Origin: Candidatus Aenigmatarchaeota archaeon
Lineage (GTDB): Archaea > Aenigmatarchaeota > Aenigmatarchaeia > GW2011-AR5 > JACRAC01
DNA length: 64,000 nucleotides
NCBI GenBank assembly: GCA_016187395.1
Contig: JACPJV010000014.1
Coordinates: 891 to 64,890, forward strand
Reading direction: 5' to 3'
Shown here: positions 20,288 to 21,096 of the stretch, one piece after another
Layout: each line of letters begins with the position of its first letter
How positions within the stretch are numbered: the stretch's first letter is position 1
The notes under the pieces: generated by a model
Databases searched by the model: none
What the model saw: the letters and a program-made list of their open reading frames with translations, nothing else
What the model was told of the DNA's origin: nothing
Program-made: the position numbers and the translations under genes

Positions 20288-20359
20288 CAGCCATTCACCT
20301 TTTCGCTGCGTTTTTGCAAAAACTTGCTCGCCTAGTTCGCTTGAATAGCCCCGCCAGGA

Positions 20360-20397
20360 TGTTCTGCATACCAGCTTTTGCGAAAGCTGGATACGCC
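20360..20397 (-). other. tRNA-Gln T-loop (59/60) intron, paralog of the tRNA-Arg intron
   Basis: GGCGTAT-CCAGCTTT-CGCA-AAAGCTGG-TATGCAGAACA; same flanks and same bulge-helix-bulge geometry as 2524-2558. Confidence 0.7.
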
Positions 20398-20418
20398 TTC
20401 GAACCTGGGTCCGCAGGT

Positions 20419-20773
20419 ATCTCGCTAAGCGTGGAGCTTTCTATGGCAGTTGGCACATAAGACAATACATTTCTTTATTTCGGAGAGAAATCTTGATTTT
20501 GAATATCCATTTCTTTCTATTGAATCGGATATTCCAAATTCTTTTTTGTTTTTATTCAAGTGGTGGAATTCTAGACATGCTGGGTGTTTCTCTCCGCATT
20601 TCAGGCATCCTAACCTCTCTTTGTATTCCCTAATCCATTTCCTGAGTTCATATTTTCTCCTTTTCGTTCTTTCTATTTCTTGCTTCTTGTGTTTCTTGTA
20701 GTACTGTTTATTCCACCGTGTTTTGTATTCTCTCCTTTCTTCCCTGTCTTTATGTGACATTCTCCACCTCAGT
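20419..20773 (-). other. 355-nt bulge-helix-bulge intron at tRNA position 37/38 carrying an HNH ORF
   Basis: 13-nt leader + 336-nt ORF + 6 nt; leader 20772-20762 pairs with 20425-20436; 3-nt bulges at both exon-intron junctions. Confidence 0.7.
20425..20760 (-). CDS. HNH (His-Me finger) endonuclease, intron-encoded
   Basis: CLKCG...LEFHHLN...LCANCHRKLHA; Lys/Arg-rich N-terminal half; GAGGTGGAGA directly upstream of ATG 20760; the track extension to 20799 is tRNA exon sequence. Confidence 0.75.
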   Translation of the reverse strand: MSHKDREERREYKTRWNKQYYKKHKKQEIERTKRRKYELRKWIREYKERLGCLKCGEKHPACLEFHHLNKNKKEFGISDSIERNGYSKSRFLSEIKKCIVLCANCHRKLHA

Positions 20774-20853
20774 CCAGAGCCTGCTATCCATAGCCACATT
20801 TGTTTTGGCCGCTAGACGACGGGGCTTTGCTTTGCTACCATAAATACTTAGCA

Positions 20854-20866
20854 TTAAAATATAAAA
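20854..20866 (-). promoter_or_regulatory. candidate TATA box for tRNA-Gln
   Basis: TTTTATATTTTAA 28-40 nt upstream of tRNA position 1 on the minus strand. Confidence 0.3.
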
Positions 20867-20949: not shown

Positions 20950-21096
20950 ATGGAAAAAAGGAAGGTGACCGTATACATAAACGAAATGGTTTGGAGGCGT
21001 TTCCTTCAAAAAGTTCTCGCAAAGCACGGAAGGGCTGCAGGCGGCGCTATTTCCGAGGAAGTGGAGCGCTCCATAAAAACACAGATGAAGAAATAA
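20950..21096 (+). CDS. 48-aa ribbon-helix-helix-like protein
   Basis: MEKRKVTVYINEMVWRRFLQKV... (beta strand then helices, CopG-like pattern); below track cutoff. Confidence 0.4.
   Translation: MEKRKVTVYINEMVWRRFLQKVLAKHGRAAGGAISEEVERSIKTQMKK

Follow-up and report, generated by a model that had tools for sequence, protein, structure and literature searches.

A candidate protein-coding, homing-type intron in the anticodon loop of an interrupted tRNA-Gln(CUG) gene from an Aenigmarchaeota archaeon

We analyzed an interrupted tRNA-Gln(CUG) gene that lies on the minus strand at positions 20346-20826 of a 64,000-nucleotide stretch of contig JACPJV010000014.1 (the window), from the Candidatus Aenigmatarchaeota archaeon assembly GCA_016187395.1. 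We propose, with a probability of roughly 0.72, that this locus is a functional tRNA-Gln(CUG) gene of the Aenigmarchaeota, a DPANN lineage, that it is split by three bulge-helix-bulge (BHB) introns, and that the intron at canonical position 37/38 is a protein-coding element of the homing type. The best reading of the sequence comparisons described below is that this element is a homing-type BHB intron derived from a family of HNH proteins associated with tRNA genes; what the sequences themselves establish is the anatomy of the gene, a conserved and covarying junction, an allele with an empty site, a profile-level family assignment and the proximity of that family to tRNA genes, whereas its splicing in vivo, its translation, DNA cleavage by its product and its present-day mobility are what we infer from those comparisons. 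A chance origin of the arrangement is disfavored because the spliced product matches an uninterrupted orthologue, relatives give the same splice calls, the junction helices covary and cognate leaders and tails pair preferentially.

A first-pass annotation, made from the letters of the window, had read the minus strand from 20826 to 20346 as a tRNA-Gln(CUG) gene with a 355-nt intron at 37/38, and that reading matches the sequence exactly. The parts of the gene are as follows.

20346-20826, minus strand: interrupted tRNA-Gln(CUG) gene, 481 nt, with 73 nt of exons in four pieces
20805-20826, minus strand: exon 1, with the acceptor 5' strand, U8, C9, the D-stem 5' strand and the D-loop AGCGGCCAA; tRNA positions 1-21
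20790-20804, minus strand: D-loop intron, 15 nt (AACAAATGTGGCTAT), at 21/22, a predicted relaxed BHB with its register read by hand
20774-20789, minus strand: exon 2, with the D-stem 3' strand, A26, the anticodon-stem 5' strand GCAGG, and C32, U33, C34, U35, G36 and G37
20419-20773, minus strand: anticodon-loop intron bearing an open reading frame (ORF), 355 nt, at the canonical position 37/38
20398-20418, minus strand: exon 3, with A38, the anticodon-stem 3' strand CCTGC, the variable loop GGAC, the T-stem 5' strand CCAGG and T54-A59 (TTCGAA)
20360-20397, minus strand: T-loop intron, 38 nt, at 59/60 (GGCGTAT-CCAGCTTT-CGCA-AAAGCTGG-TATGCAGAACA), a predicted relaxed BHB with its register read by hand
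20346-20359, minus strand: exon 4, with U60, the T-stem 3' strand CCTGG, the acceptor 3' strand CGGGGCT and the discriminator A73

Three inserts therefore split the gene: 15 nt in the D-loop (21/22), 355 nt in the anticodon loop (37/38) and 38 nt in the T-loop (59/60). The first-pass annotation had placed the largest of these correctly, had overlooked the D-loop insert within an elided part of its reading, and had left the 38 nt unexplained. When all three are removed in silico, the 73-nt product (AGCCCCGTCGTCTAGCGGCCAAGGATAGCAGGCTCTGGACCTGCGGACCCAGGTTCGAATCCTGGCGGGGCTA) is called tRNA-Gln(ctg) by ARAGORN, which together with a 67/73 match to an uninterrupted orthologue (see below) bears out the assigned identity. 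The same program makes no call on the raw gene, with or without its intron options, and is silent when the 355-nt insert alone is taken out; the check by tRNA finders that had been proposed for this locus thus fails on the unprocessed sequence and succeeds after the three removals. An 88-nt "tRNA-His" reported by ARAGORN after removal of the 355-nt and T-loop inserts was rejected as wrong, the D-loop insert being still in place. A search of Rfam at gathering score and at E<=1 likewise found nothing at the locus, its sole match being the tRNA-Arg gene at 2463. In the spliced product the acceptor, anticodon and T stems are all Watson-Crick, the D stem has a G.U pair at both ends, and U8, A14, G18-G19, U33, T54-T55-C56, A58, A1-U72 and A73 are retained around the anticodon CUG. 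The A1-U72 pair with discriminator A73 constitutes the archaeal tRNA-Gln identity. The status of this tRNA as "essential", which the first-pass annotation had assumed, is unproven, since a tRNA-Gln(UUG) encoded at another place in the genome could decode CAG.

In the 355-nt intron a 13-nt leader (ACTGAGGTGGAGA) precedes an ORF of 111 codons, which starts with ATG at 20760 and ends with TAG at 20427-20425, and a 6-nt tail, CGAGAT, follows. Its functional parts overlap one another.

20762-20772, minus strand: 5' strand of the closing (outer, h') helix, formed by the leader with its Shine-Dalgarno (SD)-like GAGGUGGAG; pairs with 20425-20436
20425-20760, minus strand: ORF of 111 codons plus TAG, resembling HNH / beta-beta-alpha-Me nucleases; annotated at NCBI as hypothetical protein HYW25_02350
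20425-20436, minus strand: 3' strand of the closing helix, covering the last ORF codons (Leu-His-Ala) and the TAG stop
20419-20424, minus strand: intron tail CGAGAU, in which GAG pairs with C32-U33-C34, C faces U35, and AU together with A38 forms the 3' bulge

A canonical BHB consists of two 3-nt bulges on opposite strands with a 4-bp helix between them, and each strand is cut after the second nucleotide of its bulge. At the tRNA-Gln locus the central helix is predicted to be formed by C32-G, U33-A and C34-G, followed by U35 facing C, and it is flanked by the bulges GG↓A and AU↓A38 (arrows mark the predicted cuts). The closing helix beyond it comprises 11 bp with one bulged G, both by pairing analysis and in the minimum free energy (MFE) fold of the 481-nt precursor; the acceptor and anticodon stems also appear in that fold, as do the inner helices of the two small introns. 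We considered a group I or group II intron and ruled it out: no Rfam match was obtained at E<=1, and there is no room for a ribozyme because 336 of the 355 nt are taken up by the ORF and its stop codon, only 19 nt lying outside them. The sense strand of the intron contains no run of four or more T residues.

The same arrangement recurs in other archaea. DNA around homologues of the 111-aa protein (~196 homologues) was taken from genomes, metagenomes and single contigs after a protein search, and every homologue placed on DNA that has at least 52% identity to the protein lies at position 37/38 of a tRNA-Gln(CUG) gene. These intron-bearing loci, metagenome contigs among them, are L001 (Pacearchaeota), L002 (Micrarchaeota), L014 (an unclassified archaeon), L081, L161, L162/L163 and L164-L169, which amount to 12 loci besides the one at 20346-20826 when L162 and L163 are counted as one arrangement. 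L161, L162/L163 and L164-L169 came from six of the eleven database proteins that rank closest (P0002-P0008, P0012), P0009-P0011 being left out; the P0009 ORF runs on into a tRNA-like 3' half. Across all 13 loci the ORF-bearing insert measures 355-361 nt, and the ORF is intact in 12 of them. ARAGORN unaided calls tRNA-Gln(ctg) with a 358-nt intron at L002, and in-silico splicing yields tRNA-Gln(ctg) at each of the 11 other loci with complete 5' ends (11/11; at L014 a D-loop insert was removed as well). A1-U72 and A73 are present in all 11 of these relatives and in the uninterrupted gene L250 described below. The first-pass annotation had named as a warning sign an ORF found only free-standing, with the tRNA halves unlinked in relatives; what we found instead is 12 further intronic loci. 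Judged by these sequences, the intronic HNH arrangement is a conserved subfamily in several DPANN lineages and not a one-off.

L162 and L163, which both encode P0008, are identical upstream and through the intron-bearing tRNA-Gln and diverge directly after it, and in L163 a phage-type integrase gene follows immediately downstream. The tRNA-Gln gene therefore seems to be an integration site for another mobile element.

Comparison of the 13 junctions supports the predicted splice structure. Both cuts are predicted after the second bulge nucleotide at every locus, within bulges of the form G36-(G/A)37↓N and A-N↓A38. The intron 3' end reads (C/U/A/G)GAGAN, with GAG opposite C32-U33-C34, and each GAG/CUC pair persists in 12-13 of the 13 aligned junctions. 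Opposite U35, 11 of the 13 loci have C or U, a mismatch, while L161 has A (U-A) and L164 has G (U.G). The junction is thus a relaxed BHB at 20346-20826 and a canonical one in two relatives, L161 and L164. Outside the central helix, nucleotides 2-13 of the intron form a helix with the last four ORF codons at all 13 loci (10-12 of 12 bp), and compensatory changes are evident in this closing helix: CTGAG/CTTAG, TTTGG/CCAAG, GCTAA/TTAGC, ATTAG/CTAAT and GTTAG/CTAAC. Over the proximal 5 bp, a leader forms on average 4.69 of 5 pairs with its own tail, a value that none of 20000 permutations equaled, and 3.41 with non-cognate tails.

We measured the same signal in a MAFFT alignment of the junctions. 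Standard pairs occupy 90.0% of junction cells as compared with 74.7% after shuffling (0/500), covariation scores 0.479 as compared with 0.189 (0/500), and 10 of 20 pairs have changed on both sides, where the shuffled mean is 6.8 (7/500). Sliding the partners by 1-3 columns as a control reduced the paired fraction from 90.0% to 28-49%. L164 and three bulged-strand rows are out of register in this alignment, and the counts in the shuffle tests are therefore conservative. The covariation of the junction helices indicates that the RNA structure is under selection, and together with the pairing analysis it supports the near-canonical BHB, with an 11-bp outer helix and one bulged G, that the first-pass annotation had described. 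The reading frame is interwoven with this structure: a UGA stop overlaps the central BHB helix (UGAGAN) in 9 of the 13 loci. The U of this motif is C at 20346-20826, L001 and L014; the 20346-20826 locus uses the upstream TAG, and the L001 and L014 ORFs read past the splice junction and stop within the 3' exon.

An intron-less allele, which the first-pass annotation had suggested looking for in relatives, was found next to the closest relative of the upstream alanyl-tRNA synthetase (AlaRS) with usable flanks. This relative, P0123 (69% identity), is encoded on two groundwater metagenome contigs, L250 and L251, which keep the neighborhood of AlaRS, a small ORF and a 159-aa ORF on the opposite strand. 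Directly after this neighborhood stands an uninterrupted tRNA-Gln(CUG) (L250 8461-8533) without any of the three introns. It is identical to the spliced product at 67 of 73 positions (92%), differing in two bases of the D-loop and in two base pairs of the anticodon stem that were swapped with compensation, and it scores 60.4 bits against the Rfam tRNA model (RF00005), for which the gathering score is 29. Carriers of the intron occur among Aenigmarchaeota, Pacearchaeota and Micrarchaeota, and one close relative within the Aenigmarchaeota lacks it. Such a presence/absence polymorphism fits the pattern expected of a mobile intron, although the relative may instead have lost it. Of the first-pass proposal of a new mobile or homing intron, the mobility accords with this empty site; the protein family is not new, and only its intronic placement is. 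In a further AlaRS relative (58%), the contig L253 ends within a tRNA-Gln-like 3' half (..GACGGCAGTTCGAATCTGCCCGGGGCTA) whose strand and place with respect to AlaRS are as at 20346-20826. This assembly break may reflect an intron polymorphism in that population.

The protein encoded by the intron is 100% identical to HYW25_02350 [Candidatus Aenigmarchaeota archaeon]. In an alignment of 40 sequences, C52, C55, E57, H66, H67, C102, N104, C105, H106 and H110 are invariant, and the resulting pattern, CxxC...HH...CxNCHxxxH, is that of zinc-bound HNH nucleases. It includes a candidate catalytic His...Asn...His set and two cysteine pairs of the CxxC type for zinc. The Pfam HNH model (PF01844) matches 11 of the 40 aligned relatives at E<0.01, with a best value of 1.1e-5; one of the 40 also carries a "homing endonuclease associated repeat". 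Searching with a profile of the family yielded the McrA HNH domain (6ghc), matched over CxxCHxxxH with E 0.0016. The AlphaFold2 model built with the alignment has a predicted local distance difference test (pLDDT) score of 89.4 and consists of a 43-residue basic N-terminal helix followed by beta63-67, two short helices, beta98-102 and alpha103-110; the two strands and the last helix would make up a beta-beta-alpha element around the ligands. We accept HYW25_02350, at the level of its family, as a putative divergent HNH-type nuclease.

At 50% identity this family comprises 47,870 clusters (E<=1e-3), a very large number, and it is elsewhere free-standing beside tRNA genes, which is why the protein cannot be called new and only its intronic placement can. 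The homologue has a tRNA gene called by ARAGORN no more than 150 nt away at 69 of 80 loci from genomes, at 62 of 80 from metagenomes and at 26 of 80 from IMG/VR viral contigs; as a rough comparison, the whole window holds two tRNA genes only. In bacteria of the candidate phyla radiation (CPR), Planctomycetes, Methylophaga and ~20 haloarchaea, the ORF shares its strand with an intact tRNA-Gln(CUG) and lies 9-600 nt upstream of it. The ORF precedes tRNA-Gly(UCC) or tRNA-Trp by ~47-50 nt in Woese-, Pace- and Nanoarchaeota, while in Pyrinomonadaceae it either converges on tRNA-Met or follows tRNA-Trp. For cultured viruses, 450 phage records contain homologues, and those of crAss001 (gp8) and halovirus HGTV-1 (gp102) sit between the tRNA genes of a tRNA cluster. 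The top-ranking free-standing relatives, L003, L004 and L006 (47-50% identity), adjoin tRNA-Gln(CUG). A neighbor-joining (NJ) tree gathers 11 of the 12 intronic proteins in one pure clade; strict monophyly of the 12 was not recovered, one falling just outside with nearest neighbors that are all intronic.

Several members of the family have tRNA fragments or intron-bearing tRNA genes in their immediate vicinity. In L004, from the metagenome-assembled genome (MAG) of a member of the Planctomycetales (~1910-2430), the HNH ORF is preceded at a distance of 25 nt by a tRNA-Gln 5' half (positions 1-39) whose anticodon loop is UUG-like, and followed at 29 nt by an intact tRNA-Gln(CUG). On sequence grounds this arrangement resembles a scar left when a tRNA-Gln gene was invaded; the bacterium concerned is unable to splice BHB introns. 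In L039 (Pyrinomonadaceae) the 3' part of tRNA-Met is present a second time, across the ORF. Such duplicated fragments beside free-standing copies are few (L004 and L039) and follow no general rule. L197 (IMG/VR, 1406-1861) carries a bacterial-type tRNA-Gln(UUG) with intact acceptor, anticodon and T stems in which the ORF comes after the anticodon arm and before the T arm, and at L192 (a viral contig, 1413-1892) the ORF separates tRNA-Met-like halves; we saw no obvious BHB at either. These two tRNA genes could be dead, or their inserts could be removed by another mechanism. In the Nanohaloarchaea-like L086 and L103 (e.g. NAR1_12), a free-standing homologue lies 54-73 nt upstream of an intron-bearing tRNA-Gln(UUG), the introns being non-coding, 35 and 69 nt long, and bounded by a perfect canonical BHB with the central helix CUUU/AAAG. 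A nuclease gene and an intron here coexist, unmerged, at one tRNA-Gln locus. Finally, many top scorers in the 50%-identity cluster library (P0241-P0389) are ~180-300 aa long with two or three matched stretches, and these long members appear to be tandem double or triple HNH modules.

The two smaller introns are predicted to have relaxed BHB junctions as well. The ends of the D-loop intron are set by homology, the mature D-loop of relatives reading AG(C/T)GG(C/T)CAA-GGAT where the tRNA-Gln gene has AGCGGCCAA-AACAAATGTGGCTAT-GGAT. Its predicted central helix, GGCC/GGCU, is flanked by the bulges AA↓A and AU↓G, and a tetraloop closes the 2-bp stem inside; the GGCCA/UGGCU helix is recovered in the MFE fold, and L014 has a 17-nt insert at the same place with the helix GGCC/GGCC. 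In the T-loop intron the T stem serves as helix h, followed by U54-A, U55-A, C56-G and a G57.A mismatch; the bulges are AA↓G and CA↓U60, and the interior would fold into a long hairpin. This layout of 3 bp plus a mismatch is common to the T-loop and 355-nt introns. The T-loop insert is found in none of the 12 other intron-bearing tRNA-Gln loci. It has a paralogue in the window, in a tRNA-Arg(UCU) gene on the plus strand (2463-2572) with a 35-nt T-loop intron at 59/60 (2524-2558). Both introns start GGCGTAT, hold a hairpin and end TATGC(A/G)GAA..., and GTTCGAAGGCGTAT occurs in the window at these two T-loop introns only. The tRNA-Arg gene is itself missed by ARAGORN and matched by Rfam in truncated form (65 nt). 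These paralogous introns suggest, at the level of sequence likeness, intron transposition between tRNA genes within the genome. The lineage evidently tolerates many non-canonical introns, which fits the report that DPANN tRNA sets look incomplete owing to undetected disrupted genes and that DPANN variants of the splicing endonuclease EndA with extra loops go with disrupted tRNA genes (PMC5829648).

Signals that could direct transcription of the precursor are recognizable by inspection on either side of the gene, and TTTATA-type boxes also occur upstream of most of the related loci.

20855-20866, minus strand: putative A/T-rich TATA-like box, TTTTATATTTTA, ~35 nt 5' of the mature end, read from the sequence
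20318-20322, minus strand: oligo-T run TTTTT, a possible archaeal terminator, 24 nt past the tRNA 3' end, read from the sequence

From these elements we derive the following proposal for how the locus would work. A single precursor of ~0.5 kb would be transcribed from the gene's own A/T-rich promoter. The 11-bp helix between the leader and the last codons would draw together splice sites 355 nt apart, and the GAG of the tail would settle on C32-U33-C34 to give a near-canonical BHB in which a helix of 3 bp and a U.C mismatch lies between the 3-nt bulges GG↓A and AU↓A38. The archaeal splicing endonuclease would cut this BHB and an RtcB-type ligase would join the exons; the same enzymes would excise the relaxed-BHB introns of the D-loop and T-loop, yielding a normal 73-nt tRNA with A1-U72 and A73. 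The product of the ORF would be a small HNH nuclease that binds zinc and has a long basic helix at its N terminus, and this protein may nick or cut intron-less tRNA-Gln(CUG) DNA near the anticodon loop. Recombinational repair would then copy the intron into the cut tRNA-Gln(CUG) gene, that is, homing.

The first-pass annotation had further supposed that the SD, sequestered in the precursor, would be freed by excision or circularization of the intron. This is wrong: because 20772-20762 and 20436-20425 both lie within the intron, both strands of the helix are intronic and stay paired after either event. The SD-like GGAG is accessible only in the nascent transcript, while the ~330 nt between the helix strands are being made. 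We therefore favor a scheme in which translation would be co-transcriptional and would be followed by self-sequestration of the SD in the finished precursor and in the excised intron, an arrangement that would keep the level of the nuclease low and ribosomes off the BHB.

A number of our observations weigh against the interpretation of the locus as a working tRNA gene with a mobile, nuclease-coding intron. At 20346-20826 the central BHB helix has only 3 Watson-Crick pairs and a U.C mismatch, and the MFE fold of the 481-nt precursor puts this helix one nucleotide out of BHB register; the folding check proposed in the first-pass annotation thus recovers the outer helix and the anticodon stem and shifts the central helix by one. 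HYW25_02350 scores 13.8 bits against PF01844 (E 0.065), below the threshold of 21.4, which leaves the HNH label of the first-pass annotation standing on the family motif, the family profile and the 11 of 40 relatives, with the single protein under the Pfam cut-off. An NCBIfam search with the protein returned no relevant match. Foldseek against the PDB ranked Cap5 HNH nucleases best, non-significantly (E 0.6, probability 0.35), probably because the 43-residue N-terminal helix dominates the model. The tRNA-Gln of L250/L251 is inverted relative to AlaRS, and the loci are therefore not strictly collinear with ours. An SD-like motif precedes 17 of the 65 long ORFs in the window (26%, compared with a background of 11%), a weak enrichment that makes the SD label tentative. 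The L002 ORF starts, around position 2001, with ACG where all other copies have ATG, the rest of its frame being intact; this may represent decay or a non-canonical start, and some copies are possibly decaying.

The last of these points would also be expected if the intron were real and spliced and yet no longer mobile, an old feature inherited vertically in DPANN archaea that the empty-site relative had lost, with its HNH protein decaying or domesticated, for example as an aid to processing of its own intron or tRNA, or in defense. The constant length and position of the intron in several DPANN phyla could reflect such ancestry, and the family is huge and mostly uncharacterized. We consider this unlikely. 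All three introns are missing from the clean gene of a close relative (AlaRS 69%), the catalytic and zinc ligands do not vary, 12 of 13 loci have an intact ORF, relatives of the protein behave as free-standing selfish genes in phage tRNA clusters, and scars of insertion into tRNA genes are found in bacteria and on viral contigs.

Far less credible is the idea that the tRNA gene is dead, with the HNH cassette and the other inserts staying in place and another tRNA-Gln doing the work. The raw sequence does give no tRNA in ARAGORN or Rfam, the visible sequence is 64 kb long and another tRNA-Gln may exist, and the family members L192 and L197 sit inside bacterial-type tRNA genes, where no BHB splicing is expected. 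At 20346-20826, however, all four stems are perfectly paired and the conserved tRNA nucleotides intact after three precise excisions, the insert lies exactly at the canonical splice position, an intact tRNA surrounds it in 11 of 11 other loci with complete 5' ends, and the junction helices covary. The least probable of the explanations we weighed has the ORF expressed from an internal promoter of its own and the tRNA trans-spliced from separately transcribed halves. Split tRNAs are known in DPANN archaea (Nanoarchaeum), and the long closing helix is reminiscent of those by which split halves are joined. Here, by contrast, the halves are contiguous, co-oriented and 355 nt apart, a run of five or more T residues is absent from the intron in 12 of the 13 loci, and there is no room for an internal promoter because the 13-19-nt leader is wholly occupied by a helix strand. 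We accordingly retain the interpretation of a functional, three-intron tRNA-Gln(CUG) gene with a homing-type element at 37/38.

The surroundings of the gene are those of an ordinary archaeal chromosome. The AlaRS gene lies upstream, and this AlaRS comes from the same MAG as the ORF. Translations of the ORFs beyond the tRNA-Gln, read by eye, read like a RadA-type recombinase and a band-7/prohibitin-like protein. Just past the putative promoter region of the tRNA-Gln, on the plus strand at 20950-21096, is a 48-aa ORF (MEKRKVTVYINEMVWRRFLQK...) that by eye resembles ribbon-helix-helix/CopG-like proteins.

To place the intron among known systems, we compared it with several classes of interrupted stable-RNA genes. 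I-DmoI, I-PorI and I-ApeI are LAGLIDADG enzymes encoded in archaeal rRNA BHB introns. Archaeal rRNA BHB introns encoding LAGLIDADG homing endonucleases have been reviewed (PMC3984707, PMC2602781), and the tRNA-Gln element would share with them a protein-spliced BHB, a stable-RNA host gene, an ORF in the intron loop, a helix that joins the intron ends, presence/absence polymorphism and a presumed homing at the DNA level. It differs in that the host is a tRNA and not 16S or 23S rRNA, the putative nuclease is of the HNH and not the LAGLIDADG type, and the ORF has only 111 aa and makes up 95% of the intron; stop placement also varies, with UGA in the central helix at 9 of 13 loci and TAG in the outer helix at 20425-20427.

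Archaeal tRNA introns are ~10-200 nt long, and to our knowledge none carries a protein gene. Non-coding introns, including multi-intron genes and non-canonical positions, are described for the tRNA genes of Thermoproteales and ARMAN/DPANN archaea (PMC4090602, PMC3239211, PMC5829648). The tRNA-Gln gene resembles these in the 37/38 position, the BHB or relaxed BHB junctions, the extra D-loop and T-loop introns and the paralogous introns in different tRNAs of one genome (the tRNA-Gln and tRNA-Arg T-loops), and differs in that its 37/38 intron is 355 nt long and protein-coding. In agreement with the first-pass annotation, which knew of no HNH ORF inside an archaeal tRNA intron, we found no description of any ORF, HNH or other, in such an intron in the searchable literature, whose coverage is incomplete; the reviews on archaeal tRNA introns that were searched make no mention of an ORF or of homing in this context.

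Phages offer a further comparison, for the tRNA gene cluster of T5 contains free-standing HNH homing endonuclease genes. The T4 enzyme SegB (GIY-YIG), encoded free-standing in a phage tRNA cluster, cuts the tRNA gene region and drives its own inheritance (PMC2330249). As in these systems, a selfish nuclease gene would here be tied to tRNA genes, and crAss001 gp8 and HGTV-1 gp102 belong to the same family as the intronic protein; unlike it, the phage genes lie between tRNA genes and involve no RNA splicing, and SegB has a different fold. In cyanobacteria, I-Ssp6803I is the homing endonuclease of a group I intron in tRNA-fMet. Bacterial group I introns in tRNA anticodon loops, some with a homing endonuclease (PMC3984707), likewise present a nuclease-coding intron in an anticodon loop. 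They are, in contrast to the archaeal element, self-splicing ribozymes with a different nuclease family. The intron of Haloferax volcanii tRNA-Trp carries a box C/D guide RNA. It shares the canonical position and a payload released by BHB splicing, which for tRNA-Gln is a prediction; the payload there is a small RNA and is not thought to be mobile.

Taken as a whole, these comparisons allow a broader interpretation, to which we give somewhat less than even odds. The tRNA-Gln intron would be the first protein-coding archaeal tRNA intron and the first HNH gene in a BHB intron. A selfish HNH family specialized on tRNA genes and spread across the domains of life, which usually resides beside tRNA genes, would in DPANN archaea have jumped into the anticodon loop of tRNA-Gln(CUG), where the insertion would be tolerated because the host's protein splicing machinery makes it harmless. 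The element would still home into empty genes, and its closing helix would act as a timer that permits translation only on the nascent transcript, before the BHB forms.

In the searchable literature archaeal tRNA introns are short non-coding spacers whose origin and spread are a standing question. An intron carrying a putative endonuclease, together with an empty-site allele in a sister genome, offers a concrete and testable mechanism for the gain of tRNA introns. One family would link the free-standing nuclease genes of phage and bacterial tRNA clusters with an intron-borne form, and the locus may have captured the step by which a selfish gene passes from beside its target to inside it and is made harmless by host splicing. 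The gene is invisible to ARAGORN and Rfam, which accounts for tRNA sets that look incomplete in DPANN archaea (PMC5829648). With 111 aa, the enzyme would be a very compact, sequence-specific nuclease directed against a universally conserved target, and the overlap of ORF, SD, stop codon and splice motif makes the intron a compact case of competing signals for translation and RNA processing.

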